A DNA stretch of 64,000 nt, from the IMG/VR virus record IMGVR_UViG_3300033074_002003; one strand, given 5' to 3'. Position numbers and translations under genes: made by a program. Of the stretch, positions 2,393 through 58,393 are shown in pieces. The DNA comes from a virus. The first letter of the stretch is position 1, and every line of letters starts with the position of its first letter. The notes below the pieces were generated by a model. The model saw only the letters and a program-made list of their open reading frames with translations, ran no database searches and had not been told where the DNA came from.

Positions 2393-3511
2393 TCAGGACG
2401 CCTTTTCAGTATCATCCTTGGTTGAATCGAGCTCAATCTTCACTGCACCCGTCGGAGTGACCTTCTTGAACGCAAGCGCCTCGAAGTACTTCACTGCCTC
2501 CTGATCTTCAAGATTCACGGGTCCACCCATTCTCTTCGAAACGGCGCGACCGAACATTCTCTCCCAATCGCGGTGCTCGGGTGCCCTAACTTCGAGGTTC
2601 TTCTTCCAGGATGCTTCGATGACTGTCGGCGCAATTCCGAGCTGCTTCGCCTGATAGACAAGCGCATTTACGTCCTTCGGGAAACAGTGACCGCCATAGC
2701 CCCGCGAGCCGTCAGGACCCGGCACTGCCCAGTGAGAAGTTCCGAGCCGCTCATCGAGCCGAGCGTATTCAACGACCTTGTCGTAGTCGATATTCGCGCC
2801 CGTGGCATCGAGTGCCTCACAGATCTGTGACATCTCGTTCGCGAAGGCAACCTTCGTGGCGAGGAAGCAATTCGTCACGTACTTTACCATCTCGGCTGTC
2901 GTCGAGCTCGTCTTGATGAGCTTCACGCTCGGGAATGCAGACTGGAAGATCTCCTTCACCTTGTTGATGTGGGGACGCGGCCCGCCGAGGACGATCCTGT
3001 TCTGGTTCCTCATGTCATCGAGAGCGTTTGCCTCTGTGAGGAACTCGGGGCTGAATACGACGCGGAGACCTGTGCCGGCGTACTTCTTGTTCCACGCTTC
3101 TGTCGAGCCAGGTGGAACGGTAGACTTCACGACCGCGATGCGCGAGCCGGGAACTTTTGCAAGTTCATCGAGCGTTGACTCTACGATAGAGAGGTCGGCA
3201 GCACCGTCCTCATACATGGGTGTCGGAAGGCAGACGAAGTAGACGCCCGAGAAAAGGTGCTGTCTCTCACACTCTTCGACAAAGCCGCGCGTATTGGGAA
3301 CCTCTGCTTGTTCCGCGGGCAGAGTGTCGAGGCCGGCATTCTTTTGCATCTGCTCGAACGAGATAGAAGCTGCAATGAGCGCAGTGCCCCCCTCGGCGAC
3401 CTTTCCCATCTTGTCGTAGACAAACACGGTAAACCCGCGCTCATTCATGACAGTAGTGAGAGACCCGCCGACAAAACCTTGACCAATGATCGCTAGCGAT
3501 TGATTTTTCAT
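2393..3511 (-). CDS. ugd: UDP-glucose 6-dehydrogenase (makes UDP-glucuronic acid)
   Basis: N-terminal Rossmann IIGQGFVGG; catalytic-Cys motif GGHCFPKD; overall UDPG/MGDP dehydrogenase layout. Confidence 0.85.
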   Translation of the reverse strand: MKNQSLAIIGQGFVGGSLTTVMNERGFTVFVYDKMGKVAEGGTALIAASISFEQMQKNAGLDTLPAEQAEVPNTRGFVEECERQHLFSGVYFVCLPTPMYEDGAADLSIVESTLDELAKVPGSRIAVVKSTVPPGSTEAWNKKYAGTGLRVVFSPEFLTEANALDDMRNQNRIVLGGPRPHINKVKEIFQSAFPSVKLIKTSSTTAEMVKYVTNCFLATKVAFANEMSQICEALDATGANIDYDKVVEYARLDERLGTSHWAVPGPDGSRGYGGHCFPKDVNALVYQAKQLGIAPTVIEASWKKNLEVRAPEHRDWERMFGRAVSKRMGGPVNLEDQEAVKYFEALAFKKVTPTGAVKIELDSTKDDTEKAS

Positions 3512-4296
3512 TGTTCGTTCCTAATCCAGCTACGATAGCCCAACACTTCTAGCTCACCCTGAGTAACCCAACGATAACTCATTTGCTTAGTTTCAGCAAA
3601 TTTATGAAGCGCAAAACGTTTGAATTCAGCATTTTTATCACGACCCTTTACTTCTTCAATCGATACTCGATCACGAGTTACCAAGAAATCAGGGACAAAC
3701 ATTTTCGGAACGCCATCACAATTTGTGTATGGTATGCGAATACCATGACGTTTTGTCCACATCACAACAGTGACATCACTATCAAGTCTTTGCATGTAAA
3801 ACTTTTCAAGCATTGAATCATAGAAGAAAGATTCACTTGATTTTGATGATGTATACCAACCTTTACGCCCATACCCATTTGTATTGGGTATTGTCCCGTC
3901 AGCAATGCCGCGAGCTCGAGACTCTGACATTCTTTGACACGTTTCTGCTGTGTGGTGTTTTCCAAAGAAAGGATTATTTTCACCCGTAAAACGTTGGCTA
4001 TTTAGCGCAATTTTTCTACGAGCTTCTTCAGTGTGTGTTTTGCCGAAAAAAGAATTTCCTTCGCCTTTACGAGCTAAAGACATCTTAGCACGAGTTTCAA
4101 GTGATGCTTTCTTCCCACGTTTAGATGCGCTCAGCTTTGCTTTACTTTCAATAGAAAAATGCTTTCCGCGAAATGGATTGTTCCTTGTTGTGAAGCAACT
4201 TCGGCACTCTTGCTTTCGTTGTTCAGCACGTAAAAATGCTTGTTCACCCTTGTATGTCAACTCACGATTACATGTTGGACAATTTCGCACAAACAC
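3508..4296 (-). CDS. homing-endonuclease-like protein: N-terminal Zn finger, three NUMOD3 DNA-binding repeats and a C-terminal putative PD-(D/E)XK-like nuclease domain
   Basis: CPTCN..CRSC finger; repeats NPFRGKHFSIESKAKLS / NSFFGKTHTEEARRKIA / NPFFGKHHTAETCQRMS; C-terminal FVPDFLV..IEEVKG; local GC ~42% versus ~55% in flanks; ATGA overlap with ugd. Confidence 0.6.
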   Translation of the reverse strand: MFVRNCPTCNRELTYKGEQAFLRAEQRKQECRSCFTTRNNPFRGKHFSIESKAKLSASKRGKKASLETRAKMSLARKGEGNSFFGKTHTEEARRKIALNSQRFTGENNPFFGKHHTAETCQRMSESRARGIADGTIPNTNGYGRKGWYTSSKSSESFFYDSMLEKFYMQRLDSDVTVVMWTKRHGIRIPYTNCDGVPKMFVPDFLVTRDRVSIEEVKGRDKNAEFKRFALHKFAETKQMSYRWVTQGELEVLGYRSWIRNEQ

Positions 4297-5051: not shown

Positions 5052-5822
5052 TCAGCGAAACCTATTTCTCATGATCGAGACAGCCTGTTCGTTGCTATCG
5101 ACCAAGATGCACGTTCGACCCGTATTCAGCGCCGCCTGTCCTGTCGTTCCTGAACCCGCAAAAAAATCTAGGACCGTCCCACCCACCGGGCAAGAGGCTC
5201 TGATCGCTCGCTCAACGAGCTTCACGGGCTTCTGCGTTGGGTAGTGCCCACCGAACTCCCTCTCTTTACTCTGCGTTCCGACAATAGACATCCACCACAC
5301 GTCTGTCGGATTTTTTCCTGCGGCCGCTCGGTCGGCATCTTTCTGCAGTCCGGGCGCCATGTAGGGAATCTTGTCAATGTCATCCCAGTTGAATACGTGC
5401 CCACCGAACGATTTCACGTACACAAGAATGTCATCGTGCTTCCTGGGCCACCGATTTTTCCCGCGCCCGCCGTAATCATAGGCCCAAATCACGTGGTTGA
5501 GGAAGTTGTGTCGACCGAAGATCTCATCGGCGACTGGTTTCACGTCAAACACCGAGTGATAGTCTAGGTGGATGTAGATCGTCCCACTGTCTTTCAATAC
5601 AGCGTGAGCTGCGCTGAGGTAATTTCGAGTGAATTGAACGTAGTCACCCACACTAAATGAGTCACGATAACGAACACCAGCATCCTCCGTAGATTTTTGC
5701 GTGTAACCGCAGTTGAAAGGCGGGTCGACGTAAATCATATCGATCGACTGTTTTGCGCGCGCAGACAGAAATTCCACACAATCACCGTGATGAATCTCTA
5801 GCGGCGAAGCGCCGCCACCCAT
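5052..5822 (-). CDS. beta-class DNA N6-adenine/N4-cytosine methyltransferase with no adjacent restriction enzyme; likely starts at the internal Met (MGGGASPLEIHHGDCVEF) of the longer ORF 5052..6053
   Basis: Motif IV IYVDPPF precedes C-terminal motif I FAGSGTTG (beta-class order); the upstream 77 codons are Arg-rich and overlap the ATP-grasp gene in another frame. Confidence 0.75.
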   Translation of the reverse strand: MGGGASPLEIHHGDCVEFLSARAKQSIDMIYVDPPFNCGYTQKSTEDAGVRYRDSFSVGDYVQFTRNYLSAAHAVLKDSGTIYIHLDYHSVFDVKPVADEIFGRHNFLNHVIWAYDYGGRGKNRWPRKHDDILVYVKSFGGHVFNWDDIDKIPYMAPGLQKDADRAAAGKNPTDVWWMSIVGTQSKEREFGGHYPTQKPVKLVERAIRASCPVGGTVLDFFAGSGTTGQAALNTGRTCILVDSNEQAVSIMRNRFR

Positions 5823-5845
5823 CTCATCTGGCGCTGGGCCTCTTC

Positions 5846-6646
5846 TCACGTGAGCACTTCTTTCCGCAGTGCGACGTACAGATCGAGAGCTTCGTTCATC
5901 GACAGCCCGGACTGTTGGCCGTCGTTCACTTCGACGACGATCCACCCGCCATCTTGCTTCTGTGCCACATCGACAGCAAAGAACGTGACGTGCTGCGCGA
6001 TGATCTCTGCAACAGATGCCAGAAATTCGGGTGGCGGTCGGGACGTGATCCACTCGGGAGGCACGTCTTCACCGTGCGTCGACCAGTAGTATCCCGTCGT
6101 CAGTTCTGTTGTCTTGTAGAAGAACGAGCGATACTCGCGTGTGATCGGGAGCCCGTGATCTGACCTGCAGTGTGTGAGCAGTGGGACGTACTCTCTGATG
6201 TAGATGTCCTGTTCACCCACAAGAGAATCGGCCGTGAGTCGTGAGTGGACTCGCACGGCGTCCTCGAAAGTCTCTGCGTACATGTGAGTGTCCCACAGAA
6301 ATTTCATCGAGTTCGTCGCGCCCTTCAGGACGAAAGGTCCCTTCGCGTCTCTTATATCCTGAAGCCTAAACCACGTCTTTGGCGTGAGGTCGCCGAGAGC
6401 CGTAGACCACTCGCGCATATCTGCACAGAACTGGTGTTCTCTGTATGTGTTTATGAGTGCACCACCGAGAAGTTCTATATCGTTCTCGAATTCCTTGAAG
6501 AAGGGCAGTGCAGAGTAGCGAGGCACGACAAAATCGCCAGGCTGTACGGCTGCGCGCTGGCGAATGACAGTGAATCCCGCCTGCTGCGCGGCCTCCCGTT
6601 CGTGGTCTTCTTCGCGACCCCCTCGCAGTAGCACTACAGTTCTCAC
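5846..6646 (-). CDS. ATP-grasp fold ligase-like protein
   Basis: C-terminal GGWIVVEVNDGQQSG resembles the ATP-grasp C-terminal strand (cf. RimK ..VMEVNASPG); ATGA overlap with glf. Confidence 0.45.
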   Translation of the reverse strand: MRTVVLLRGGREEDHEREAAQQAGFTVIRQRAAVQPGDFVVPRYSALPFFKEFENDIELLGGALINTYREHQFCADMREWSTALGDLTPKTWFRLQDIRDAKGPFVLKGATNSMKFLWDTHMYAETFEDAVRVHSRLTADSLVGEQDIYIREYVPLLTHCRSDHGLPITREYRSFFYKTTELTTGYYWSTHGEDVPPEWITSRPPPEFLASVAEIIAQHVTFFAVDVAQKQDGGWIVVEVNDGQQSGLSMNEALDLYVALRKEVLT

Positions 6647-22408: not shown

Positions 22409-23188
22409 TCACTTGTCGTTGAGCCACTCCGAGACGTAAGCCTCCTCCGGACTCTCTTCTACGAGCGGCTTCTTGCGCGTCATGAGGACCTGACCGTAGT
22501 CGATCTGATCGTCCGTATACCCGCGCTCGTCCATGAAAATTCGGCGATCCATCTTGATGAGCTGCTTCTCGTGTGAGTCAAACTGTGACTCATCGATCTC
22601 GTCGATCGCCCGCGCACACTCGATCGCCTCCTCTTTCTTTGTCGGGAGGTGATAGTCGTCGAAGAGAATGTGACGTGACCACTTGTCCTTCAGTAGTTCC
22701 CAGTCGCGCTTCACTGCGTCGTACCTGTGATCACCGTCGACATAGACGAGATCGAACTTCTCTGGAATTCGCGGAAGCGCGTCCTCTGACTTGTCTGTCA
22801 CGAAAACAATGCCCTTGAACCACTCCTCTGGGAAGATCCTGGCGAGGCTCTGCACGTAATCACGGTTTAGCGATGGGTCGATCGTCGTGATTCGGCCCGT
22901 CTTCCCGAGGTCTGCGAACGCCTTCGCCGCACACATTGTGCTGTAGCCCCGGCCGAAGCCGATCTCGAGGAACGAGTCGAGATTTCCGGTGACGATGAGG
23001 TAGTAAATGAGAATACCTCTCTCGTAATTGCTGCGATAGAAAGCTCCCACAGTATCGAAGAGCTTGTTCCCAGGCTCACGATTTCTCTTCGCCGTGAACT
23101 CGCCGATCGAGTCGAAATGGCCCAGTGAAATGTCAGATACTTTTACGCCGAGCTCCTCGAGCTTCTGTTGGATCTTCAGTGTCTTCAT
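22409..23188 (-). CDS. class I SAM-dependent methyltransferase (Methyltransf_24/CmcI-like; candidate sugar O-methyltransferase)
   Basis: Motif I LEIGFGRGYST; acidic LVYVDGDH. Confidence 0.65.
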   Translation of the reverse strand: MKTLKIQQKLEELGVKVSDISLGHFDSIGEFTAKRNREPGNKLFDTVGAFYRSNYERGILIYYLIVTGNLDSFLEIGFGRGYSTMCAAKAFADLGKTGRITTIDPSLNRDYVQSLARIFPEEWFKGIVFVTDKSEDALPRIPEKFDLVYVDGDHRYDAVKRDWELLKDKWSRHILFDDYHLPTKKEEAIECARAIDEIDESQFDSHEKQLIKMDRRIFMDERGYTDDQIDYGQVLMTRKKPLVEESPEEAYVSEWLNDK

Positions 23189-23784
23189 TGTGTTGGCTTT
23201 CTAAAAAGAACGACGGGTTCGCCGCCGATGGGTGCTGATGCCGTCCACGACAGGTTGTTTCCGAGAAATTCGTCTACTGCGGCTTTTACGCCCACCTTGT
23301 CAGTCTTCACTACGGGTGTGGCGCTCTCGATCTGCGAGTGTGTGTCGCGCTCGGAGTAAAAGAGGTCGCGCTCTGACCATTTTCCGAAGTAGTCATCTAC
23401 GATGAGGAGTCCATCGGGACTCAACAGGTCTTTCAAGAGGTCCAGCTCGCGACTCACCGTATAGTAGTTGTGATCGCCGTCGAGGAAGATGAGGTCGAAT
23501 TTCTCTGTGTTCGGTCCGAGAGTCGGCAGGTAATTCAAGCTGTTGTCAACAACGAACTTGAACTTGTCACTATCAAGAAATCCTGTGTACTTCAGGATCA
23601 CTTCAAGTGAGGCATCAAATCGAATATCGACGGACGTCACTTTGAAATCATTCTTCACGCGTGACAGCCAGAAGAGCATCGGAACGAGCGTCTGCCCACG
23701 GTCCACACCGATTTCAAGAATGTTTGGTCTTGAGACTCGTGAGAGAAACTGTTGTGCGACGGGAATGTAACCGTGATGGCTCAT
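23185..23784 (-). CDS. class I SAM-dependent methyltransferase, paralogue of 22409..23188; start at MSHHGYIP gives an ATGA overlap with the upstream gene
   Basis: ILEIGVDRGQT motif I; LIFLDGDHNY parallels LVYVDGDHRY in the paralogue. Confidence 0.65.
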   Translation of the reverse strand: MSHHGYIPVAQQFLSRVSRPNILEIGVDRGQTLVPMLFWLSRVKNDFKVTSVDIRFDASLEVILKYTGFLDSDKFKFVVDNSLNYLPTLGPNTEKFDLIFLDGDHNYYTVSRELDLLKDLLSPDGLLIVDDYFGKWSERDLFYSERDTHSQIESATPVVKTDKVGVKAAVDEFLGNNLSWTASAPIGGEPVVLFRKPTQ

Positions 23785-24050
23785 AGATTTTGCTCTCGCT
23801 TCTCGATTCCAATGATCTCTTGTCGACGAACGCAAAAGAGCAATTCGCCATCAACGGTGATCTGCTGCATGTGTGCAGATTTTGGAACAAAAATGATATC
23901 GTCCTCGATCGGAAGGGCCCCAACACACGAGATGACGCGCATCCTCTTACACGAAGAAGACGATGAATCGATCATGATGAGATCAGAATCAGAGCTCTTC
24001 TCTTCGATCTCTTTCACGAGAATGAAATCGTTCAGCATCTGTACGGGCAT
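23781..24050 (-). CDS. GroES/Cpn10-like co-chaperonin (analogue of T4 gp31)
   Basis: [22 protein letters not shown] aligns to GroES [31 protein letters not shown] ~ [25 protein letters not shown] ~ EEVLIMSESDILAIV; stop/start overlaps on both sides. Confidence 0.5.
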   Translation of the reverse strand: [89 protein letters not shown]

Positions 24051-25990
24051 CAGTGTTCCCTGTCGTTAGTCCAGCCAATGATATCGCGCGGAAGCGATCT
24101 GTTCACAGAAATGTGAGGCGTTGACGTCTTCCCGTCCCACTTCCTGTGCCAAACCCACCCGCCGAGGACACTCTTCATTAGTGCGGCCCTCTCACGAATA
24201 TCTTCGTCAGACACGTCCGACCACTTCTTGTCAAACATGAAGTTATTTTCTGGTGTGTCTGTGACAGTGACGTCAAACAGAGATTTCCAGTGACGAGCCC
24301 AGTACCCGCGGTACGTCTTGATTTTCCTCTCGAGATCCCACCAAGAGAAGTGAAACACGCCTGGGATCTTGTCTACGACGAAGTTGAACCACTGTTCGTA
24401 GTTTGCAAGTGCGCTGGCGTTGCCCATCATTGCAGCGTGCTTCAACCTTTCGATGTCTGGGGTGTAGAAAGACGAAAATGGGATGGGATCACTGGTGACA
24501 GAGTCGATATAATCGCAGCCGTCTGTGCCCTGCGCTGCGTAGGTGTGTCCCAATGAATCGATTCGCCGAAGCGCGCGGGGGATCCCGTGTGTTATCGCGG
24601 GGTCGTTGCGACTGATCCTCCACTTCCACGGGTTGATGTCCAACCTGACTTTTTCGATCCCGCCCCAATATTCGATGACGGGCAGCGCGAGAAGAGCGGC
24701 ATTCGCCGGGAACCTCATGACGAGGTCCTTGATTTTTTCACAGTCGTCTTCGTGGACAACCTCGTCAGAGTCCTGCTGCCAGCAGAAATCTCCCGTGCAC
24801 ATCTTGCGAGCCTCGGCTTTCTGGAGGCCGTCGAACACTGCATGGCGAGGGTGGTCCCAGTCGCGAGTGATCTGCTTGACCTTCAGGCGCTGTGTCACTG
24901 TACCGTCGACGTTTTGCGTCATATAACCGAGAGCCATCTGTTGCAGTCGGCTCCACGTGCTGTCTGTCGATCCGCCGTCCACGACGCAGACCTCATCGCA
25001 GAATGCAAGCATGCTTTCGATGCTTTCGCGAAATGGGTATCCCTGGTCGACGCAGTTGTACGTCGTCGTGTAGCCACTGATCTTCGGGCGATCCAAGTGA
25101 GACTTGGTATCGGCCCAGAACCTGGAGCGGCTGAGAAATAGGTACGATTCGGTGTCGACGCGGTCGGGCGATGTGAACCACTCCTCGGCCGCATGTTCGA
25201 CATTTTCATTGAGGTGCAGCTCACATCCGAGGAGTTTTGCCTCGATCACCATTCGTGGGCATGTATCTCCGCCGAGGGGCAGGTAAACGAATCCTGTGGC
25301 CCGCGCGAGCCTGTCAAGAAGTTCATCGTACGGCAAGTTCCACACGATGTCGTAGTCTTTGCCCGTAGACTTACACCATTCGACCGCCGCGTCGAAACCC
25401 TTCACCCACGACTTCGATCCGAGAACAATCCACTTTCCGTCGCGGGGACTGTCAGCATATTTCTTGTTCAACTGGGCAACCTTGACGAAAAATTGGTCAT
25501 CAAACACCGACGAGAGGACTGTGTTGTTGCACTGCTGGATCTCAGGAATCTTTGCGATGTACCTGCTTCTCTGGCGTTCGGACATCCACCAGATCGACTG
25601 GGCGCCGCAGAAGAACGTCGAAATTAGCTTCCCGTGTGCCTCGTTTTCGCAGTTGCATGGATTTCCTTCGATGGCGGCGTGTTTCTCTGGGGAGCGGTAT
25701 TTGCAGTACTTGTAGTCGTACTCCAGGATTGCGTACTTGATCCCAGAGGAAACGATCACGGGTAGAAGCGAGATGTCCATGCCCGCAAAATTGCCAAAGA
25801 TCCAGAAACGATCTTTTCCCTCTTCAAGGATCGATCTCGTAACACTGGATGACTTCAACTTGAGAAGCGGGAAGGGTGCAGAGTCGATGATCGCCTGCGA
25901 TGTTAGCTCTGCTCCACCGACGTACTCGTCAACGAAGAAGTCAGAAACGAAGACAAATTTGACGTCGGCTTGGATTTGGCCTGGAACCAT
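24050..25990 (-). CDS. two-domain glycosyltransferase (N-terminal GT-B-like plus C-terminal GT2-like); first gene of the leftward operon
   Basis: C-terminal half carries GT2 motifs CVVDGGSTDS and QQDSDEVV; the N-terminal ~300 aa resemble a separate glycosyltransferase domain. Confidence 0.55.
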   Translation of the reverse strand: MVPGQIQADVKFVFVSDFFVDEYVGGAELTSQAIIDSAPFPLLKLKSSSVTRSILEEGKDRFWIFGNFAGMDISLLPVIVSSGIKYAILEYDYKYCKYRSPEKHAAIEGNPCNCENEAHGKLISTFFCGAQSIWWMSERQRSRYIAKIPEIQQCNNTVLSSVFDDQFFVKVAQLNKKYADSPRDGKWIVLGSKSWVKGFDAAVEWCKSTGKDYDIVWNLPYDELLDRLARATGFVYLPLGGDTCPRMVIEAKLLGCELHLNENVEHAAEEWFTSPDRVDTESYLFLSRSRFWADTKSHLDRPKISGYTTTYNCVDQGYPFRESIESMLAFCDEVCVVDGGSTDSTWSRLQQMALGYMTQNVDGTVTQRLKVKQITRDWDHPRHAVFDGLQKAEARKMCTGDFCWQQDSDEVVHEDDCEKIKDLVMRFPANAALLALPVIEYWGGIEKVRLDINPWKWRISRNDPAITHGIPRALRRIDSLGHTYAAQGTDGCDYIDSVTSDPIPFSSFYTPDIERLKHAAMMGNASALANYEQWFNFVVDKIPGVFHFSWWDLERKIKTYRGYWARHWKSLFDVTVTDTPENNFMFDKKWSDVSDEDIRERAALMKSVLGGWVWHRKWDGKTSTPHISVNRSLPRDIIGWTNDREH

Positions 25991-26015
25991 AGCACGATGT
26001 TACAGCATTTGTCCC

Positions 26016-26152
26016 GATCTGTTCATTAAATTTGAACACCTGAGATCTCCCCTTAAATTAAGATCCAGATCAGATCTAGATCATTTAACAGATCGATCTC
26101 TTAACTGGTTAACCACTAGATCAGTTAATAGATCTGGAAGAGATCTAGATCA
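26016..26152. promoter_or_regulatory. GATC-saturated palindromic/iterated strand-switch region (divergent promoter region and/or origin-like element)
   Basis: 12 GATC sites in 137 bp; AGATCT four times; TAGATCA three times; AGATCTAGATCA twice; GGTTAACC palindrome at 26107-26114; lies between divergent operon starts. Confidence 0.6.
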
Positions 26153-26171
26153 GAAAGTGTATGTATCCTGA

Positions 26172-26633
26172 GTGCCTCCCCAAGTACCTCGTCGAGATCC
26201 GCGTGAAGAACCTCTCGAGGGGGAGAGATTTCATACTCCCCTGAGCGGGCAGGTCGGTATTTTTGAGGTTCTCTACTCTATCAAGGCAGAAGTAGGAACC
26301 GTTCACAAGCGCATCGACGAGATGCAACACACGATGACGCGCATAGGCGAGGAATCGTCTGTCAACGGACACAAGCTAACGAACCTCTCAGAGAAGCTCC
26401 TCGAACCAGACGAGGGACTGTTTGCCCGCGTTCGTGATATCGAGCGCAAGATCGAGCTCACCGAGAAGATAACGGAGAAGAAGGGCGACGAGACAGAAGC
26501 CGCTGTCAAACAAGTCGACAAGCTCGTCACGTGGAAAGACACGTGGGGCAAGGTGGGGTGGTACGTCCTCATCGCACTTGTCGGAGTTGTTTTGAAGTAC
26601 ATCTTTGATTTTCTGGTTACAAAGCCTAAGTGA
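26172..26633 (+). CDS. hypothetical coiled-coil protein with C-terminal transmembrane anchor (start may be ATG 26322)
   Basis: C-terminal hydrophobic VGWYVLIALVGVVLKYIFDFLV; the tool's start is GTG; stop overlaps the next gene's start (GTGA). Confidence 0.4.
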   Translation: MPPQVPRRDPREEPLEGERFHTPLSGQVGIFEVLYSIKAEVGTVHKRIDEMQHTMTRIGEESSVNGHKLTNLSEKLLEPDEGLFARVRDIERKIELTEKITEKKGDETEAAVKQVDKLVTWKDTWGKVGWYVLIALVGVVLKYIFDFLVTKPK

Positions 26634-27883
26634 CAGTCGAGATAGTTACGTCTTCTGACATCTCCGGACTTATTTGTGAAGTTGGAGAGCGACTCGAGAA
26701 TTTTTCCTCTCTTGTCGGGAGACTTAGCCCACAGCAGCTGTCTGCCGCGACTCTCGCGTTCCAAGATGGCTCCGAGAAGGTTGTCGCCCAACTGATGTTA
26801 GAGGCGGGATTTCGCGCCGAACGTGTCTGTCCGTACTCAGCTAGGGCTGCAATCCAGCTGGTCCTTGGTCACTCGAGAAAATTCTCTGGTGTACGTTCGG
26901 TGTACACAGCCGAAGGGCTGGAAGAATTCTTGAGTGACGTGACGAGGAAGATAGCACACGTGAGGGGCGCGTCGTTCTTTCCGAATGCGAGCGAATTTTG
27001 GGATGTTGTCTCTTCACACGCGTCTCACCGAGCTCTCGGTGTACTGCGCGACGCAATTTCGCTTGGCGGTTTTGACAGCAGATATGTCATCGAGAGAAGC
27101 AGCTCGCCTAACCCTGATGTCACTGTTGAGACTGTTTTAGGATACAACTTTTCGCTCGATTCGGCGGTGAACATCGATAGTTGGGAAGCTGAGAACGTGT
27201 CTCTTCTCATGGTCGACGGTGTGATCGAGTCTGTCACTGAGATTCATCGCGTCCTGACATTCGCCGCCGAGAAAAAAGTTCCGATTGTCATCGTCGCTCG
27301 TTCGTTTGCCGACGATGTGAGGCAGACGATCGTGACAAATAATGCCCGAAGGTCGTTCTCCGTCCTCCCAATTGTCGTACCAGCTGATGCTAGAAACATC
27401 AATACGATACGAGACATCTCTATCGTGTGTGGATCGAGCGTCGTTTCTTCGATAACTGGTGAGGTGCTGTCCGGAAAAACTGGCGAGTCACTGATCTCTG
27501 TGAACGCGGTGAGATTTTTGCGAGGAAACTTGACGATCGTGGGCGGAGAAAGAACTGCTGCTGCTACAGATGCTCACCGGTGCTCTTTGGTAGAGAGCAG
27601 GCAAGAGGCGCACCACGAGATGTTGCCACACTTTGACTCTCGCATCAAGTCGCTTACGCCGAATCACGTCTTGGTTCGCGTGCCGAGTCGAGGTCTTGAA
27701 GATTCAGGCCTATTTGACGACATCACGGACGTCTTCAGACTTGTGAGAGCAATTCACGAGTATGGTGTGCACATCGATGAAAATGGTGACATCGACGTCA
27801 CGCTCAGAGCGCTGTCGGCGCTTCGATTTGCCAAAGCACAGCTAAAGTTGCTATTTTCGCTCGGAGCGATCGTTGTAAACTAG
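26630..27883 (+). CDS. truncated, degenerate GroEL/Cpn60-like protein (apical plus intermediate domains, reduced equatorial domain)
   Basis: [14 protein letters not shown] ~ GroEL [61 protein letters not shown] ~ [58 protein letters not shown] ~ NKDTTTIIDGVGE; the GDGTTT ATP motif is replaced by QDGSEK; no GGG motif. Confidence 0.5.
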   Translation: [417 protein letters not shown]

Positions 27884-29679: not shown

Positions 29680-29917
29680 CCCACTCTTTGGCGAACTGAA
29701 CACAGAGCGCCTTGCAGCAGAAAATCTGAAGTGCCGTGAGATCGTTAGAGAGATTGTCAACTTTGGTGTTACAGAGAGGCAGTTGTTTGTCATTATCAAG
29801 CTTCTAGCTTATGAGCTCGAAAGTGTTGATGCGATGCGCGAGCTTGTTGCGCACGTAGATGAACTCTGTAACGAGATCGGTATTTCGTCAAATAGTACAT
29901 CAGGAGAAGCACGATAA
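29672..29917 (+). CDS. hypothetical small protein
   Basis: ATGA-coupled to clpP. Confidence 0.3.
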   Translation: MASPLFGELNTERLAAENLKCREIVREIVNFGVTERQLFVIIKLLAYELESVDAMRELVAHVDELCNEIGISSNSTSGEAR

Positions 29918-30492
29918 TGGGAAGGCAAGCTGCTAAAACAACCGGAGACAGTGAATTCGGCGAAGCTCCCTCGATGGGAATTGCGCTAGCAGAAGACAGG
30001 ATCGTATTTCTGTCTGGTGACGTTACAGAACACTCAATCACGCAAGTGCAAGCACAGCTAATTTCGCTCGCAAATCACAGCAAGTTGCCGATTACGCTAG
30101 TCGTGAGCACATACGGTGGTTCGGTGGACGAGATGTTCAGTCTGTATGACACGATCAAGTTTATCGGCGTGCCCATTCATACAGTCGGGCTCGGAAAGAT
30201 CATGTCAGCTGGTGTCTTGCTTCTCGCTGCGGGTGCAAAAGGCAAGAGACTCATTGGGACTCACGCGCGCATCATGATTCATCCGCTCTCGGGTGGATCT
30301 GGCGGCAATGTTTTCGAGATGCAAAATGACACGGCCGAACACCAGCGCCTGCAGGAGCTTCTCGTCAAAGCGATGTTGCAAGAGACGAAGTTTAAGAGGC
30401 CTGATCTCGAGAAGCTCATGAAATCTGGTTACGACTGCTACCTCACCGCGCAAGACGCGATTCGCCATGGAATCGTAGATAGTCAAATCTGA
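29917..30492 (+). CDS. clpP: ClpP-family serine protease subunit
   Basis: Ser motif GKIMSAG; His motif RIMIHPLSGG; C-terminal Asp in GIVDSQI; collinear with ClpP. Confidence 0.8.
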   Translation: MGRQAAKTTGDSEFGEAPSMGIALAEDRIVFLSGDVTEHSITQVQAQLISLANHSKLPITLVVSTYGGSVDEMFSLYDTIKFIGVPIHTVGLGKIMSAGVLLLAAGAKGKRLIGTHARIMIHPLSGGSGGNVFEMQNDTAEHQRLQELLVKAMLQETKFKRPDLEKLMKSGYDCYLTAQDAIRHGIVDSQI

Positions 30493-30620
30493 GCTCGACG
30501 AGATAAGAAAAAAAAGTGAGCCCATCGAAGTTTTTGTGGGATTTTCTTTTTACACTTTGGGATAGCGAGGTATTTATACTCTGAGCGTTGCAAAGCAAAA
30601 AGCTCGCAAGGAGAATCAAC

Positions 30621-30869
30621 ATGTCTGATACGGACGTACTCGTGAATTGGGATGGTGTGAAGGCGACTGTTACTGCTCTTGAGGAGGATGTCGTGAAGAA
30701 CCTCGTCAAGGGAAATGCGTCGGCTGGTGTTCGCGCACGCAAGGGCCTTCGCGCTCTCCGCGGGCAGCTCACCCTGATCGTGAAGCAGTCGATGGAGGCA
30801 GCAAAGGCTGCCCGCGCGGCCAAGCCGCCGAAGGCTCCGAAGGAGCCCAAGGCGAAGAAGAGCGCCTGA
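30621..30869 (+). CDS. histone H1-like (Hc1 family) DNA-binding protein
   Basis: KGNASAGVRARKGLRALRGQL ~ chlamydial Hc1 KGNKAAAQRVRTESIKL; K/A/P-rich tail AKAARAAKPPKAPKEPKAKK; AAGGAG RBS 7 nt upstream of the ATG. Confidence 0.55.
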   Translation: MSDTDVLVNWDGVKATVTALEEDVVKNLVKGNASAGVRARKGLRALRGQLTLIVKQSMEAAKAARAAKPPKAPKEPKAKKSA

Positions 30870-47457: not shown

Positions 47458-48286
47458 GCTCTCAGACGATCTTGTGCACTGTTGGGTCTGTGGCTATAGT
47501 TCGAGGAACCTTGTCCCGCTTCTCAGGAAGTTTGGAAGCCACGATGACCTGAGTTTCTACATCGAGAAGTCTGGGTCATCTCTCACATTTCAGAAGCCCG
47601 CCGAAGACGAAAGCGTTCCACTGAAGTTGCCCGAGGGGTTCAGGTTGATCGCCCCACTCATCGGCCGCGGCGATCGAGACGTTGTTCGTGCGATGCGATA
47701 CCTCAAGGAGCGCGGGCTCACAGCGTCAGACGCGTGGTACTACAAGTTTGGTGTCGCTCCGACGCTCCCAGATCGCGTCATCATGCCCTCATTCGATCAA
47801 GTGGGTGGGCTAAATTTCTGGACGGCCCGTTCGATCGTTGACGCTCGTCCGAAGTACATCGATCCCCCGAAGGAGTGTGTGAGGAAGAATGAGATCATCT
47901 TCAATGAGATCAACATTGACTGGAAGAAGGAGCTTGTCATCGTCGAGGGCCCATTTGACCTGACGAAGTGTCCCACCAATACGACAGCCCTTCGAGGCAA
48001 CCAACTCTCTGAAGAGTCTCGGCTACTTATACAGATCGTGATCCACGAGACTCCTTGTGTCGTGATGCTTGACGACGATGCAACTGATCGCGCCGGGAAA
48101 ATCGTGAGGACATTGGCGTCGTACGGCGTCACTGCAAAGCGCGCTAACCTCGGCGAATTTCACGATCCGGGCGAGATGACGAAGAAACAGGTTGCCGACT
48201 GCGTAAAAGCCGCACGTGAGCTACAATGGGAAGATCACCTCTCCGACAAGCTTTCTAAATTGGATCGCCTTCACCTCTCGTTTTGA
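47309..48286 (+). CDS. DnaG-type DNA primase (Zn ribbon plus TOPRIM), T4 gp61-like
   Basis: CPICLQQ..HCWVCGY zinc ribbon; TOPRIM ELVIVEGPFD and VVMLDDDATDRAG. Confidence 0.7.
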   Translation: MFALSDKVKFIERVFGKGDVTRNLTNIQVTCPICLQQSQKWSQKRKLAVRLSDDLVHCWVCGYSSRNLVPLLRKFGSHDDLSFYIEKSGSSLTFQKPAEDESVPLKLPEGFRLIAPLIGRGDRDVVRAMRYLKERGLTASDAWYYKFGVAPTLPDRVIMPSFDQVGGLNFWTARSIVDARPKYIDPPKECVRKNEIIFNEINIDWKKELVIVEGPFDLTKCPTNTTALRGNQLSEESRLLIQIVIHETPCVVMLDDDATDRAGKIVRTLASYGVTAKRANLGEFHDPGEMTKKQVADCVKAARELQWEDHLSDKLSKLDRLHLSF

Positions 48287-51200
48287 GGCACATGAAAATC
48301 TGTCACATCGCAGACATCCACATCCGTTCGATCAGCAGGCACGATGAGTACCGAACTGTGTTTCAGAGTCTCATCGACGACCTGAAAAAAGATCCCGTTG
48401 ACGTTATCTTTGTCGGGGGCGATGTCTGGCACACGAAAACAGCTGGGCTCACACCTGAGTACATCGACTTCATGCGGTGGTGGCTGACAGAGCTCGCGAA
48501 TTGTGCCGAGCTGTTTGTTACTCTTGGAAATCACGACGGAAATCTCGTCAACACTGACAGGCAGGATGCAGTGTCGCCGATCGTCGCCGCCCTCGCAAAC
48601 CCGCGCGTGAAGCTGTACAAGAAGAGCGGTGTATATGAGTTCAAGAAGGGCTGGAACTTCTGCGTCTACTCGCTATTCGATCGCGAGGGGTGGAAGAATG
48701 TATCACCCGAGAAGGGGAAGATCAACATCGCGTGCTATCACGGCGGTGTCAGGTCTTCTCTGACCGAGACGGGTTGGCCAATCGAAGAGGGCCCGTCTGT
48801 CGACTTCTTCGACGGGTATGACCTTGTCCTCCTCGGTGACATCCATCGCCAGCAGTTTCTCGGCAGCCCGAAGAACGGACAGCCGTGGATCGCGTACCCC
48901 GGAACGCCAGTCTGTCAGAACTACGCAGAGGGCTACCAGAAGCACGGGTACCTAAAATGGGTGCTGAATGATGACGGTGTCGTAAGCTCTGTTGATTTCG
49001 TCGAGCTGAAGCAACCGAACCCGTTCGTGACAGTCGACTGGGAGGGCGATCGAGAGAAGTTCGTCAAAGATATCGAGGAGCTTCCGGAGGCAGCGAGGTT
49101 CCGTGTCAAGAGCTCTGTGTTCGTATCACAGGATGACATGGGTGTCATCTCTGCGACACTGAAGAAGAAGAAATCGGCGATCGAAGTCGTCTTGAAGTCT
49201 GAGGTGACACACAAGAAGGACGTGTTCTCGGCGGGCGGCCTTGAGATGATGCGCGATGACTTGCGCAATGTCGAGGTCCTGACACTTCTCTTGAAGGATT
49301 TCTATCGCGGTATCTCTATCAGCAATTCTGAGTGGGATGACGTCACGAAACTCGTTGAGAAGTACTTGCGATCGGCTTCGAGTGACGACGAGTCACCGCG
49401 ACACGTCAAGTGGAGAATCGGCGAATTCTCGTTCGAGAACCTGTACTCTTACGGGCTCGGCAACAAGATCAACTTTGAGAAGCTGTCTGGTATCGTCGGA
49501 ATTTTCGGACCTAACAGGTCTGGGAAGTCATCGATCGTCGGGACGATGATGTATGGTCTCTTCAACACGACAGATCGCGGGGCGGTCAAAAACCTTCAGA
49601 TCGTAAATGACAGGAAGTCCTCCGGCGAGGCGAAGATCGCACTTCAGGTGGGTGAAGCGAAGTACGTGCTGACGCGTGAGACAAACAAAACAGACACGAA
49701 GAAGGGCATCACAGTCGCGGCCACTTCACTCGATCTGAGGCGTATCGCCGCTGACGGCTCTCTTGTGAACATGAACGGTGAGCAGAGAAATGACACCGAG
49801 AAGACGATCAGGAAGTTGATCGGTACACAGGACGATTTCCTGCTCACGTCAATGTCAACACAGGGTGATCTGAACAAGTTCATCAACGAGGGCTCTGCCT
49901 TCAGGAAACTGATTCTCACGAAGTTCCTCGACCTCGACATCTTTGAGAAGATGCACGAAGCAGCCAAAGCAGAGCTCAAAGCGGCGACAGCGATATCAAA
50001 GACGATCCCAAAGCGTGATTGGCCAGCAGAGCTAAAGAAGATCGACACAAAGCTGTCTAATTTTGATGACTTCGCAGAGAAGATCGAGACAAAGCTGTCT
50101 GAGCTTCGGGCATCGCTGCATACCGCACAGGTGAAGCTCGCGCTGTATAAAAACACCTCAACTGTGTCAGAGGACGAAATTTCTGCCGCAGTAGCTCTTC
50201 TAGAGTCGTACGTTGCTTCTTCTGAAGCGCTCGAAGTGCAGCTCAAGAAGCTTCGCCTCTCGCTGGAAAATGGTCACGATGCCCACGCTCGCGTCCTATC
50301 CCTTCTCGAGAACTACGACGCAGAACAGCTACGAATTGAGCGTGATAACGGCGTAGCACTAAAATCTGCGGCAAAGACGCTTGAGGCACAGCTCACTCGC
50401 GCGAAAGAGGATGTCGAGAGGTTGAAGAGGTCCGCAAAGAAGCTAAGTGTCGTCCCATGCGAAGACAAGTTTCCCACGTGCATGTTCATCAAAGACTCTC
50501 ACGTCGATAGGGGAGAACTACCCGCCGCAGAACAGAATGTCGCCGAACTAGAAAAATCTCTCGAGAGCACAAATTCGGCATTTTCTGACTGGCAGAAGCT
50601 CGATACGGAGAAGAAGTTCGCAGAGCACGCTCGCCTCCTGACAGAAGAGAGGTCACTCGCAAACGCTATCTCGGCGTCAGAGGTGTCGGTCACAAAGACA
50701 GAGAGCCAACTTAGTATTGCGAACGCGAAGCGCGGAGCACAGAAGATCAAGGTCGATGAGCTCGTCGAGGCTGCGGCTCGTGCGGAGAGTGTCGAGGCAC
50801 TTACTCTCCAGAGAGAGTGCGACTCGATCAACGAAGACATCAAGCGTTACGACAAAATGAAAGTCGATGCCGCCACCAGTCGCGGCAAATTTGAGACTGA
50901 GGCGAAGCAGCTGAAGTCACAGCAGTCACAGTACGAAAAAGTTCAGCATGACATTCACGTGACGGAGCTGATCTCAGAGGCTTTCTCGAAGCGCGGAATT
51001 CCCACGAAAATCATCAATTCGCAGCTGCCGGCGATAAACGCTACTGTCGCTGAAATTCTCCATGGCGTTGTGGATTACACGATTGAGTTCGTTGCGGACG
51101 AGGACTCGAACGCCCTTGACGTGATCTTGAACTACGGCGATTCAAAGAGGGTTATCGAGCTCGGATCTGGCATGGAGAAACTATTTGCGTCACTTGCAAT

Positions 51201-51438
51201 CAGGGTGGCACTTCACACGATCACCTCGCTCCCAAAGACCGACATGTTTGTCATTGACGAAGGATTTGGCTCTCTGGACGACCTCAATGTGGAGCCCTGT
51301 AATCGCCTCTTGAGATCGCTGAAGAGGTACTTCGGAACGGTGATTGTCATCACACACGTGGGTGGTATCAAGGATTCTGCCGACACGATCATTGAGATCG
51401 CTCGAGACGGAAAAGACTCGAAGGTGGTCGCAGAATGA
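48283..51438 (+). CDS. single-polypeptide fusion of Mre11/SbcD-like nuclease (T4 gp47-like) and Rad50/SbcC-like ABC ATPase (T4 gp46-like)
   Basis: N-terminal phosphoesterase motifs ICHIADIHI, FVGGDVWH, TLGNHD; Walker A FGPNRSGKSS at ~aa 410; long coiled coil with CEDKFPTC hook-like motif; signature GSGMEK; Walker B MFVIDEGFGSLD; H-loop IVITHV. Confidence 0.75.
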   Translation: MRHMKICHIADIHIRSISRHDEYRTVFQSLIDDLKKDPVDVIFVGGDVWHTKTAGLTPEYIDFMRWWLTELANCAELFVTLGNHDGNLVNTDRQDAVSPIVAALANPRVKLYKKSGVYEFKKGWNFCVYSLFDREGWKNVSPEKGKINIACYHGGVRSSLTETGWPIEEGPSVDFFDGYDLVLLGDIHRQQFLGSPKNGQPWIAYPGTPVCQNYAEGYQKHGYLKWVLNDDGVVSSVDFVELKQPNPFVTVDWEGDREKFVKDIEELPEAARFRVKSSVFVSQDDMGVISATLKKKKSAIEVVLKSEVTHKKDVFSAGGLEMMRDDLRNVEVLTLLLKDFYRGISISNSEWDDVTKLVEKYLRSASSDDESPRHVKWRIGEFSFENLYSYGLGNKINFEKLSGIVGIFGPNRSGKSSIVGTMMYGLFNTTDRGAVKNLQIVNDRKSSGEAKIALQVGEAKYVLTRETNKTDTKKGITVAATSLDLRRIAADGSLVNMNGEQRNDTEKTIRKLIGTQDDFLLTSMSTQGDLNKFINEGSAFRKLILTKFLDLDIFEKMHEAAKAELKAATAISKTIPKRDWPAELKKIDTKLSNFDDFAEKIETKLSELRASLHTAQVKLALYKNTSTVSEDEISAAVALLESYVASSEALEVQLKKLRLSLENGHDAHARVLSLLENYDAEQLRIERDNGVALKSAAKTLEAQLTRAKEDVERLKRSAKKLSVVPCEDKFPTCMFIKDSHVDRGELPAAEQNVAELEKSLESTNSAFSDWQKLDTEKKFAEHARLLTEERSLANAISASEVSVTKTESQLSIANAKRGAQKIKVDELVEAAARAESVEALTLQRECDSINEDIKRYDKMKVDAATSRGKFETEAKQLKSQQSQYEKVQHDIHVTELISEAFSKRGIPTKIINSQLPAINATVAEILHGVVDYTIEFVADEDSNALDVILNYGDSKRVIELGSGMEKLFASLAIRVALHTITSLPKTDMFVIDEGFGSLDDLNVEPCNRLLRSLKRYFGTVIVITHVGGIKDSADTIIEIARDGKDSKVVAE

Positions 51439-56384: not shown

Positions 56385-57248
56385 ATGAGCAGCAAAGCAC
56401 ACAACAAGCGTAGGAATGCGGGACTCCTGTACGAGTTTCTCTTCAGAGCCGCATCAACTGCGATCGTCGATGGCGATCACGAAAAGAGTGCAGCCGCCCT
56501 TGCGATCATCAAGAAGTATTTCAACAAGGACGGCGAGCTCTACAGAGAGTATCGGCTCTTCAATTCGTTGATGAAGGTCGAAGTGAAGTCTGAGGCCGTC
56601 GCGTCAACTATCCTTCGTGAGGCCGCGCTCGCGGCGAAATCTCTTCAGACAGAGGCCGTTCAGAAGAAGAAGACGGCACTGATCAACGAAATCAACAAGA
56701 CGTTCGATGATCCCACGTTCTGGGACGCGCCGATCGCTAACTACAAGATTTACGCTACGATCGGTACTCTGATCTCGGAGTGGTCAGAGCAGTCTGGCAA
56801 GGTAGACATTCAGAGGCTTGCGGAGCTCGAAGACAGGCTGGTATCTTGGCTCCGTGAGAACAAGTCAGCGGTGCAGGAAGCAGAGCCGACGAAGAGGGAC
56901 GGAACAGAGAGGCTTGCCCTCCGACTGGCACTCAGAAAATTCAACGAGAAATATGCCGGTACTCTACAGACAGAGCAAAAGGACATTATCAGGTTGTGGG
57001 CCCTGTCACACCAGAGCGGGAAAGCCGAACCTGTCACCAAGTTTCTCGCAGAGGTAAAATCGTCCACACTTGCAGCGATAGACGTTGCGGTAAAAGACCC
57101 CGAGCTGGCTCTTCTTCACGAGGGGATCAAGTCTACGCGTGAGAAGATCGAATCCGAAAAACTTGAAGAGGTGAATGACGAGACGGTCACTAGGTTTGTC
57201 CTCTATTCGCACCTCAAATCTGAGCTCACAAAGCGAGGGGACACATGA
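56385..57248 (+). CDS. putative prohead core / internal protein
   Basis: Between portal and prohead protease, ATGA coupled; helical K/E-rich composition. Confidence 0.35.
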   Translation: MSSKAHNKRRNAGLLYEFLFRAASTAIVDGDHEKSAAALAIIKKYFNKDGELYREYRLFNSLMKVEVKSEAVASTILREAALAAKSLQTEAVQKKKTALINEINKTFDDPTFWDAPIANYKIYATIGTLISEWSEQSGKVDIQRLAELEDRLVSWLRENKSAVQEAEPTKRDGTERLALRLALRKFNEKYAGTLQTEQKDIIRLWALSHQSGKAEPVTKFLAEVKSSTLAAIDVAVKDPELALLHEGIKSTREKIESEKLEEVNDETVTRFVLYSHLKSELTKRGDT

Positions 57249-57877
57249 AACTTCTTGAGACATTCGACGAATTTGAGTACAAGCTCATCACAGAGGCCGC
57301 GCCCGTACCTGTAGAAGTAGAGGACGAGAGTGGTAACAAGGTTTCGCTTCCTGGCAAGCCGAAACTCATGATGAAGGGCATCTTGCAGAAGGCCGATACG
57401 CTCAACCAGAACGGCAGGATCTACCCTAAGGCGATCCTAGAGCGCGAGATTCGCAACTACCAGAAGTTCATCAACGAGAACCGCGCTCTGGGGGAAATTG
57501 ATCACCCGGACTCTTCTGTTGTGGAGCTGAAGCGCGTCTCTCACATTATTCGCGAGGCACACATGGAGGGAAATACCGTCATCGGAACGGTGGAAATTCT
57601 CCCAACACCCTCGGGCAATATTCTACGAGATCTGGTCGAGGCGAAGGTGAAGCTCGGAATCTCGTCGCGCGGTGTCGGCTCTACGAAGAAAGACGGTGAC
57701 TACTACGTCGTTCAGGACGATTTCCAACTGATCTGCTGGGACTTCGTGTCCGAGCCGTCGACACCGGGAGCGTTCATGATGGCCGAGGGCAAGACGTTGA
57801 CTGACAGCGAACTGCGCAAGATCTTCAATAGGTCTGACAGGATTTCGCGAATCCTAAACGACATCCTGGACAAGTGA
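57245..57877 (+). CDS. 21: prohead core protease (T4 gp21-like)
   Basis: Position between portal and scaffold; collinear resemblance to gp21-family proteases (GEIDHPDSS..SSRGVGS). Confidence 0.65.
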   Translation: MKLLETFDEFEYKLITEAAPVPVEVEDESGNKVSLPGKPKLMMKGILQKADTLNQNGRIYPKAILEREIRNYQKFINENRALGEIDHPDSSVVELKRVSHIIREAHMEGNTVIGTVEILPTPSGNILRDLVEAKVKLGISSRGVGSTKKDGDYYVVQDDFQLICWDFVSEPSTPGAFMMAEGKTLTDSELRKIFNRSDRISRILNDILDK

Positions 57878-57901: not shown

Positions 57902-58393
57902 ATGAATATCGTAAAATTCCCTAACACAGCGCTTCGCGTCCCATGTGTCGATGTCTCGCGCGAAGATGATATCTCTGATCTCATAAAAGAGATGATTGAT
58001 ACGATGTATGCGAACAACGGCGTCGGTCTTGCGGCACCGCAGGTAAATGTGCACAAAGCGCTGTTTGTGATGGATTGGACGGGCGGAGACAGGAATGACA
58101 CTCTGACTGTCGTCATCAACCCCGTGATCATCTCACACTCTGGAGACGACCAACAAGTCTCACCAGAAGGGTGTCTCTCGATCCCTGGTGTATTTGCGAA
58201 TGTCAACCGGCGGTCTTCTATTGTGGCTACGTGGTTCAACGAAAAAAGAGAACCCATCACAAAAGAACTATCGGGCCCCGAAGCGGCGATTTTTCAGCAC
58301 GAACTTGACCACCTCGGTGGTATTGTATTCACAGACAGGTTGTCTCAGTTTGCGAAGAAGCTCGCATTCAAAGGGTATGGAAATCAGTCATGA
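57902..58393 (+). CDS. def: peptide deformylase
   Basis: Three PDF motifs GVGLAAPQV, EGCLSIPG and QHELDHLGG. Confidence 0.9.
   Translation: MNIVKFPNTALRVPCVDVSREDDISDLIKEMIDTMYANNGVGLAAPQVNVHKALFVMDWTGGDRNDTLTVVINPVIISHSGDDQQVSPEGCLSIPGVFANVNRRSSIVATWFNEKREPITKELSGPEAAIFQHELDHLGGIVFTDRLSQFAKKLAFKGYGNQS

Follow-up and report, generated by a model that had tools for sequence, protein, structure and literature searches.

A very divergent, roofless Cpn10/GroES-like co-chaperonin in the glycan-biosynthesis operon of a large phage with a predicted T4-type capsid

Background

Many phages encode a GroES homolog that works with the GroEL of the host, and some encode both proteins (PMC7185714, PMC5649160); a jumbo-phage clade counts GroES among its shared genes (PMC5852040), and two GroES-like genes occur in phage CBB (PMC5259590). 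In T4, the folding of gp23 needs GroEL together with the phage protein gp31 (PMC5649160; T4 record annotation). The roof beta-hairpin of GroES is absent from gp31, from CocO of RB49 and from several viral cpn10 clusters, and virome studies, from which such roofless clusters are known, have suggested that the deletion enlarges the cavity (PMC5649160). A further set of phage proteins, EL gp146, OBP gp246 and AR9 gp228, comprises chaperonin ATPases of about 550 aa that work without a co-chaperonin (PMC7185714, PMC9598537). Here we examine a gene for an 89-aa Cpn10/GroES-like protein in a 64,000-nucleotide stretch of viral DNA (IMG/VR record IMGVR_UViG_3300033074_002003; hereafter the window), which an earlier note, made from the sequence alone, had described as a GroES/gp31-like co-chaperonin embedded in, and translationally coupled to, a glycosyltransferase operon. 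Phage homologs of GroES are already well known, and what this gene mainly adds is a very divergent roofless lineage.

Results and discussion

Sequence and structural affinities of the 89-residue protein

Profile matches and predicted fold place the 89-aa protein in the Cpn10/GroES family as a genuine though highly diverged member. It matched the Pfam Cpn10 profile (PF00166) from position 2 to position 92 of 93 (E=0.0014, 19.1 bits), phrog_3188, "co-chaperonin GroES", across its full length (E=2.8e-6), and the GroES subfamilies of NCBIfam with a best E-value of 9.7e-5, far under their equivalog cut-offs. Precomputed PF00166 matches also exist for one homolog (P0003) and for the copy on a related contig, L010. 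When a profile was built from the phage family only, four GroES chains headed the list of PDB matches (E=0.011-0.16), and hhalign aligned the family profile with E. coli GroES over 82 columns (E=7.6e-5, probability 62%). The quinolinate synthase matches returned by a single-sequence phmmer search against the PDB were spurious, and the family profile was needed instead. An AlphaFold2 (AF2) model, computed from an alignment of five family sequences with canonical GroES excluded, showed six beta-strands forming a beta-barrel (predicted local distance difference test, pLDDT, 75; predicted template-modelling score, pTM, 0.64). The 33 best Foldseek matches of this model in the PDB were all Cpn10, GroES or Hsp10 structures, with probability 1.00 and TM about 0.6; the remaining matches of GroES fold listed were medium-chain reductases with E>0.3, whose Rossmann domain is absent here. 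Among viral models (BFVD), the best matches were "co-chaperonin GroES" proteins of 84-87 aa from uncultured viruses (TM 0.67-0.71, identity 16-23%). Because full-length profile matches from three libraries, the hhalign alignment to GroES and the predicted fold concur, we regard the combined evidence as convincing, although the single-sequence Pfam score misses its curated threshold by 2 bits. The earlier description of a GroES-like co-chaperonin with Cpn10 motifs and a shortened roof loop thus holds at the level of sequence, profile and predicted fold, both the profile similarity and the beta-barrel on which it hinged having been found.

The open reading frame (ORF) is a real gene under purifying selection and not a chance ORF, because the ratio of nonsynonymous to synonymous substitution rates (dN/dS, Nei-Gojobori) is 0.076, 0.13 and 0.18 against three diverged homologs and the same slot is kept in lineages down to 53% identity. 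Its ATG lies at 24050..24048 and its TGA stop at 23783..23781, an earlier in-frame start being impossible because the stop-to-stop segment begins at 24065; an AGGGA Shine-Dalgarno-like motif precedes the ATG by 6 nt. The upstream gene, which encodes a glycosyltransferase of family 2 (GT2), has its TGA at 24052..24050, one base of which also belongs to this ATG (ACTGATGCC), and the ATG of the downstream methyltransferase gene (23784..23782) overlaps the TGA of the Cpn10-like gene (CTATGAGC). Direct reading of the sequence therefore bears out the coordinates, the 89-aa length and both the TGATG and the ATGA overlaps as first reported.

Numerous metagenomic contigs carry the protein in identical or 94-99% identical form. 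More diverged copies were recovered from the L010/L013 lineage (92% identity), from contig L009 (68%) and from the activated-sludge contig L018 (53%, protein P0007), and every one of them stands between a glycosyltransferase C-terminus and a methyltransferase N-terminus that are the same as in the window. The TGATG overlap is conserved in L010, L009 and L018; the downstream junction is a 4-nt overlap in L010 (from gene coordinates), GTGA in L018 and a 5-nt spacer in L009. All carriers belong to one phage clade, with flanks 80-97% identical, so the conserved synteny reflects shared ancestry and is not independent evidence. The family is very small, amounting to two 50%-identity clusters when 1.84 billion representative proteins were searched with its profile. 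Beyond the cluster of the window, this search gave P0007, then P0010, a canonical viral Cpn10 recovered over its full length at E=5.5e-4, and also P0008 and P0009, which we dismissed as repeat artefacts.

One of these copies may have a history of its own. When positions 693..956 of L009 are compared with 23784..24050 of the window, the Cpn10-like alleles are 68% identical and the flanking glycosyltransferase and methyltransferase segments 96%. The synonymous divergence (dS) of the L009 allele, 1.33, is far above that of its flanks (0.45-0.53), about 2.5-3 times as high, which suggests that it was swapped in as a cassette by recombination within the clade.

Mobile loop, tripeptide and roof

The protein can be aligned end to end with E. 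coli GroES (1AON chain O; PF00166), with which it has in common the beta-barrel core and, at both termini, the strands that serve ring contacts, at an identity of just 19%. The mobile loop is near-equal in length to that of GroES, shorter by one residue, and is predicted to be disordered (pLDDT <50 at residues 18-25 and 27-31 of the AF2 model). It presents a hydrophobic tripeptide at the position of the GroEL-binding element of GroES, I25-V26-L27, and this tripeptide is LIM or LII in every family member. The surroundings differ: the Gly-Gly that precedes the tripeptide in GroES is Ser-Asp in the phage protein, and the loop, Ala-rich in GroES, is Ser-rich here, with a poly-Ser stretch.

The second difference lies in the roof. 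Opposite residues 49-59 of E. coli GroES the alignment has a gap of 11 residues, which corresponds to a deletion of the roof hairpin; the remnant that stands in for it is modelled as a short loop joining the strands at residues 34-42 and 52-56. Across the four lineages, 10 of 15 positions in the N-terminal strand and 13 of 20 in the mobile loop are invariant (65-67%, making these the best-conserved segments), as against none of the nine in the roof remnant; both terminal strands, from which GroES makes its ring interface, are retained and conserved. The constrained parts are thus those for GroEL binding and ring building, and this pattern, as read from the alignment, is that predicted for a GroEL-binding, ring-forming protein. 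Since the roof is likewise missing from gp31, CocO and the viral clusters, it separates cellular members from some viral ones and does not define the family.

Comparison with gp31 and other viral co-chaperonins

The earlier note had called the protein gp31-like. With T4 gp31 (taken from NC_000866), BLASTP gave E=2.3 and hhalign aligned 11 columns (E=0.15, probability 0.4%), and no gp31 chain occurs among the 50 PDB matches listed by Foldseek for the model; as this similarity is not significant, we reject membership in the gp31 family. The 11 columns cover the core of the loop, ESGLII in gp31 and DSDLIM here, so that gp31 has GLII where the tripeptide of the Cpn10-like protein aligns. Resemblance to gp31 and to RB49 CocO is one of type: all are phage-encoded, have no roof hairpin, share a similar loop core and occur in phages with a Gp23-family capsid protein, and neither T4 gene 31 nor the present gene is linked to the capsid gene, both standing among non-structural genes. 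The differences are that gp31 has 111 aa as against 89 aa, and that the protein described here falls in the Cpn10 sequence family and has no detectable sequence kinship with gp31. Of the two adaptations by which gp31 enlarges the cage, the missing roof is present here, whereas the lengthened mobile loop is not, the loop being of GroES length.

A further parallel is offered by the roofless GroES clusters of virioplankton (Marine et al. 2017, PMC5649160), whose members have about 84-87 aa, have no dome loop, in some cases have no mobile-loop Gly and in some cases are encoded near a viral GroEL. They are only 16-23% identical to the phage protein, and their GroELs are full-length and encoded with GroES in ES>EL or EL>ES operons, whereas the GroEL homolog of the window is a derivative of 417 aa that is encoded on the other strand, beyond the glycosyltransferase gene, a control region and a 153-aa gene. 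The arrangement also departs from that of bacterial groES, in that the Cpn10-like gene is neither beside nor upstream of a functional groEL.

The glycan operon and the capsid gene

The Cpn10-like gene is the second of a leftward operon that extends from 25990 down to about 325 and constitutes a glycan-biosynthesis cluster of about 25 enzymes (Table 1). Its products include a PseB-like dehydratase, a DegT aminotransferase, a GNAT acetyltransferase, a short-chain dehydrogenase/reductase (SDR), UDP-galactopyranose mutase, UDP-glucose dehydrogenase and a NUDIX/cytidylyltransferase, and it contains three GT4, two GT2 and two Methyltransf_24 genes. The upstream glycosyltransferase, which heads the operon, had been described as a two-domain enzyme: its one GT2 domain is evident, but the N-terminal ~300 aa match no family, and a PDB sequence search with them gave designed-repeat artefacts only. 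Twelve of the 28 junctions in the operon are 4-nt overlaps, and one, that between the GT2 and the Cpn10-like genes, is a 1-nt overlap. As overlaps are generic in this operon, translational coupling says little about the function of the co-chaperonin; what the earlier note said of embedding and coupling is accurate as to position and overlaps, but constitutes weak evidence.

A Gp23-family major capsid protein is encoded near the other end of the window; tblastn with this protein matched 2,578 phage records, T4-like and cyanophage gp23 included. A terminase, a portal and a gp21-type prohead protease are also encoded in the window, and the replicon is a large phage with a T4-type capsid. The co-chaperonin gene lies 37.7 kb from the capsid gene, in agreement with the distance of about 38 kb given previously. 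To treat this distance as an anomaly is unfounded, as in T4 about 25 kb separate gene 31 (131,181-131,516) from gene 23 (104,945-106,510); gene 31 is on the opposite strand and has as its neighbors the early non-structural genes cd, pseT, rIII and the ligase gene.

Several other genes of the window deserve mention. In the L010/L013 lineage a gene for a 242-aa GIY-YIG homing endonuclease (L010 4913..5641, L013 790..1518) is inserted between the second methyltransferase gene and the GT2 gene; this insertion is absent from the window, whose glycan operon contains a homing-endonuclease-like gene with a NUMOD3 motif and, elsewhere, a gene for an N6/N4 DNA methyltransferase. A peptide deformylase gene is situated in the head module, right after the prohead protease gene, and a 1,051-aa ORF appears, from its SbcD-like and SbcC-like matches, to encode an SbcCD fusion.

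Table 1. Positions of the Cpn10-like gene, its elements and other features in the 64,000-nucleotide window
Feature	Coordinates	Strand	Details
Cpn10/GroES-like co-chaperonin gene	23781..24050	-	89 aa, 10.1 kDa, pI 4.7, ATG start; ORF and Cpn10 profile matches
Mobile loop, residues 16-35	23946..24005	-	aligns to E. coli GroES mobile loop; coordinates checked by translation
Hydrophobic tripeptide L24-I25-M26	23973..23981	-	aligns with GroES I25-V26-L27
Roof remnant VGALPIEDD, residues 43-51	23898..23924	-	stands in for GroES roof beta-hairpin
TGATG stop/start overlap, GT2 gene/Cpn10-like gene	24048..24052	-	ACTGATGCC, read directly
ATGA start/stop overlap, Cpn10-like gene/methyltransferase gene	23781..23784	-	CTATGAGC
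Upstream glycosyltransferase gene	24050..25990	-	646 aa, 74 kDa; Pfam Glycos_transf_2 E=1.5e-6, GT2 domain at residues 309-440; first gene of leftward operon
Downstream S-adenosylmethionine (SAM)-dependent methyltransferase gene	23185..23784	-	199 aa; Pfam Methyltransf_24 E=3.8e-15
Divergent control region	25991..26171		181 bp; between leftward (glycosyltransferase, Cpn10-like and further genes) and rightward (153-aa protein, GroEL-like) units
GroEL-derived protein gene	26630..27883	+	417 aa, reduced equatorial domain; phrog_5725 E=1.2e-12; NCBIfam GroEL E=1.5e-13
Gp23-family major capsid protein gene	61723..63630	+	635 aa, 67.8 kDa; Pfam Gp23 E=4.1e-76; phrog_138 E=1.7e-71
T4-type prohead protease gene	57245..57877		
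Peptide deformylase gene	57902..58393	+	phrog_2890 E=1.1e-35
ClpP homolog gene	29917..30492	+	NCBIfam ClpP E=4e-36, full length
Small basic protein gene	30588..30869	+	Pfam Hc1 (chlamydial histone H1-like) in relatives
1,051-aa ORF	48283..51438	+	SbcD-like (residues 1-371) and SbcC-like (residues 261-1049) matches
N6/N4 DNA methyltransferase gene	5052..6053	-	PF01555 E=9.5e-48; in leftward operon
NUMOD3-motif gene	3508..4296	-	homing-endonuclease-like; in leftward operon

A GroEL-derived neighbor

A gene not mentioned in the earlier note, 2.6 kb from the start of the Cpn10-like gene, encodes a 417-aa protein that is derived from GroEL, to judge from its homology across the apical and intermediate domains, and that we do not file as a canonical chaperonin. 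The gene stands second in the rightward unit, behind a 153-aa gene with which it overlaps at GTGA. Thermus thermophilus Cpn60 from the PDB aligns with it over GroEL residues 60-424 (E=4.7e-10), and Foldseek of its model against GroEL gave E=1e-21; its score against the NCBIfam GroEL models is about 50 bits, as against cut-offs of 350-580. Two independent alignments concur that it has no counterpart of residues 1-24, 412-432, 448-501 and 524-548 of E. coli GroEL, and its C-terminal equatorial domain is short by about 75 residues. Of the nucleotide-pocket residues, LGPKG, TKDG, the TTT of the phosphate-binding loop GDGTTT, GGG414-416 and N479/A480/D495 are substituted or deleted, and D398 alone is kept. 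The apical groove carries L234H, L259R and V264T, and the segment Y199-F204 is missing or altered. In the AF2 model the apical and intermediate domains have pLDDT 75-89 and the equatorial remnant 45-69. The gene has a dN/dS of 0.066, an identical protein is encoded on a 305,889-bp contig, and outside the clade there are no truncated relatives, every other match being a full-length GroEL. A six-frame scan of the ORF segments of the window with the GroEL profile matched no other segment, on which ground we rejected both a full-length GroEL split between the 153-aa and 417-aa genes and a missing equatorial part encoded elsewhere in the window; a second Cpn10 was likewise rejected by a six-frame scan. 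In being a GroEL homolog of a large phage, with about 20-24% identity to cellular GroEL, the protein resembles the chaperonins of EL, OBP and AR9, but it differs from them in having neither the nucleotide-pocket motifs nor the N-terminus and in co-occurring with a Cpn10 gene.

Megablast and tblastn searches of cultured phages (50,697 records) found no match to the region or to the Cpn10-like or GroEL-like protein, and scans of IMG/VR, JGI metagenome contigs and GTDB genomes found none for either protein. These last scans consequently offer no independent lineage in which a pairing of the two could be tested, and no clue to the host.

Farther along the window is a ClpP homolog, additional to the prohead protease, in which by-eye reading locates the motifs GKIMSAG, IMIHP and GYDCY at the positions that we take to be those of the catalytic Ser, His and Asp. 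The Cpn10-like, GroEL-like and ClpP homologs thus place three protein-quality-control genes within 7 kb. Between the ClpP-like gene and the PhoH/PIN genes is a gene for a small basic protein.

The divergent control region

The two units diverge from a 181-bp region whose composition is unusual: the bin 26001-26200 contains 17 AGATC/GATCT and 13 GATC sites, with no other 200-bp bin exceeding 5 and 6, respectively, and the region also holds TTAAC/GTTAA near-palindromes. Across the window as a whole GATC is about 2.2-fold over-represented (543 observed, about 248 expected). The control region is 95-97% identical to that of the L010 lineage, whereas flanking synonymous sites differ at 34-52%; being far more conserved than synonymous sites, it is a constrained region common to both units. 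It could be an array for regulator binding or methylation, or else resemble an origin. Both GC skew and AT skew flip near 26 kb together with gene orientation, and this coincidence means that the skew cannot separate an origin from divergent transcription. A sigma-70 promoter scan did not rise above chance, with 2 found against 3.3 expected; a sigma-70-like match 28 nt upstream of the Cpn10-like start lies in conserved coding sequence and was not interpreted. The window has a single occurrence of the T4 late-promoter motif TATAAATA, away from the control region.

Proposed function and alternatives

GroES binding to GroEL normally needs the nucleotide-bound state, and the usual limit of the GroEL/GroES cage is about 60 kDa. 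We consider it fairly probable that the Cpn10-like protein forms a heptameric lid and caps host GroEL by means of the LIM loops, with a roofless dome suited to an oversized client, most plausibly the capsid protein. We infer that seven copies would form a dome, from which the flexible Ser-rich loops would present L-I-M to the helix H/I groove of the apical domains of host GroEL in its nucleotide-bound state, such that the phage lid would cap the ring instead of the GroES of the host. Loss of the roof would leave the dome open or thinner on top, as in T4 gp31 and RB49 CocO, and may enlarge the folding chamber. The most likely main client, by analogy with T4, would be the phage's own 68-kDa Gp23-family capsid protein, which is larger than T4 gp23 (521 aa). 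As the second gene of its operon, the Cpn10-like gene would be expressed together with the glycan enzymes from a promoter region at 25991..26171, and its placement would reflect genome packing and timing and not a dedicated glycan role. On sequence grounds, the fully hydrophobic LIM/LII fits the canonical GroEL groove better than the His/Arg/Thr-substituted groove of the 417-aa protein.

Several observations weigh against this proposal. The Pfam Cpn10 score is 2 bits under the gathering threshold (19.1 vs 21.1), and identity to E. coli GroES is low. A fit to the host GroEL is hypothetical; the assignment of the capsid protein as client is by analogy with T4; and neither a sigma-70-like nor a T4-late promoter signal was detected in the control region. 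The Gly preceding the GroES tripeptide is replaced by Asp in three of the four lineages, P0007 retaining Gly, and Marine et al. have speculated that loss of the mobile-loop Gly accompanies the use of viral instead of host GroEL (PMC5649160). Furthermore, the GroEL-derived gene stands close by across a shared, strongly conserved control region, and GC content at third codon positions (GC3) is alike and low in the GroEL-derived and Cpn10-like genes (0.555 vs 0.556, with neighbors at 0.61-0.73); such proximity, shared control region and similar GC3 hint at a functional or historical link.

These last points are the basis of an alternative that we regard as unlikely overall, namely that the Cpn10-like protein works with the 417-aa GroEL derivative, as a phage-specific, probably ATP-independent capped holdase or cage or as a remodeller of host rings, under the shared control region. 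Both genes are second in the divergent units that flank the highly conserved 181-bp region, neither is missing from any contig of sufficient length, purifying selection acts on both (dN/dS 0.076 for the Cpn10-like gene and the similar value given above for its neighbor), and their low GC3 is common to both; viral GroEL genes, moreover, often occur together with a viral GroES (PMC5649160). The replacement of Gly by Asp and the acidic residues around LIM could even complement the His and Arg at L234 and L259. On the other hand, the nucleotide-pocket motifs have been lost, while canonical GroES binding needs the nucleotide-bound state; of the five apical contact residues that can be aligned, three are polar or charged, and the changes at Y199-F204 come in addition; ring formation is doubtful, given the partial deletion of the N-terminus and ring-contact stem-loop and the low pLDDT of the equatorial remnant; and the two genes are not in one operon. 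Less probable again is the more specific form of this idea, in which the roofless Cpn10 would be the lid of the GroEL derivative and not of host GroEL, yielding a nucleotide-independent capped chaperone or a hijacker or remodeller of host rings that is co-regulated from the GATC-dense region and sits beside the phage ClpP in a proteostasis island; we found no precedent in the literature for a Cpn10 paired with a GroEL derivative that has no nucleotide pocket.

The operon itself invites the thought, which the earlier note gave as the second of its two options, that the co-chaperonin is dedicated to the glycan pathway, folding with host GroEL the large, aggregation-prone glycosyltransferases and sugar-modifying enzymes. 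The glycosyltransferase/Cpn10/methyltransferase order and the TGATG overlap are kept in four lineages down to 53% identity, the operon encodes about 25 enzymes, and the upstream 74-kDa glycosyltransferase is above the usual cage limit; yet the carriers form one clade, making the synteny inherited and not convergent, overlaps are generic in the operon, and the L009 allele, with its dS of 2.5-3 times that of the flanks, looks as if it was swapped independently of the glycan genes. As a diffusible heptameric lid needs no adjacency to its clients, and we found no precedent in the literature, we hold a dedicated glycan role to be improbable. We are equally sceptical that the protein retains the GroES fold without a chaperonin role, as a decaying relic or a small beta-barrel recruited elsewhere: the 19% identity to GroES, the sub-threshold Pfam score, the tiny family (two clusters among 1.84 billion) and a dN/dS 2-5 times that of the flanking genes would be in keeping with it, but a dN/dS of 0.08-0.18 denotes clear purifying selection, it is the mobile loop and the N-terminal strand that bear most of the constraint, and the other GroES-fold matches in the PDB, the medium-chain reductases, need the Rossmann domain that this protein does not have.

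Conclusions

The roofless lineage is confined to a single clade of large, T4-like phages from the environment, the 68-kDa capsid protein of which should strain a normal cage, and it provides a natural test case for whether loss of the roof is by itself enough to enlarge the folding chamber. That the gene lies in a glycan operon is a curiosity, and what could be new is the pairing with a GroEL derivative without a nucleotide pocket. If the two proteins interact, the chaperonin scaffold would be usable without an ATP cycle, and the pair would bear on the question, raised for phage EL (PMC7185714), of hidden co-factors of divergent phage chaperonins.

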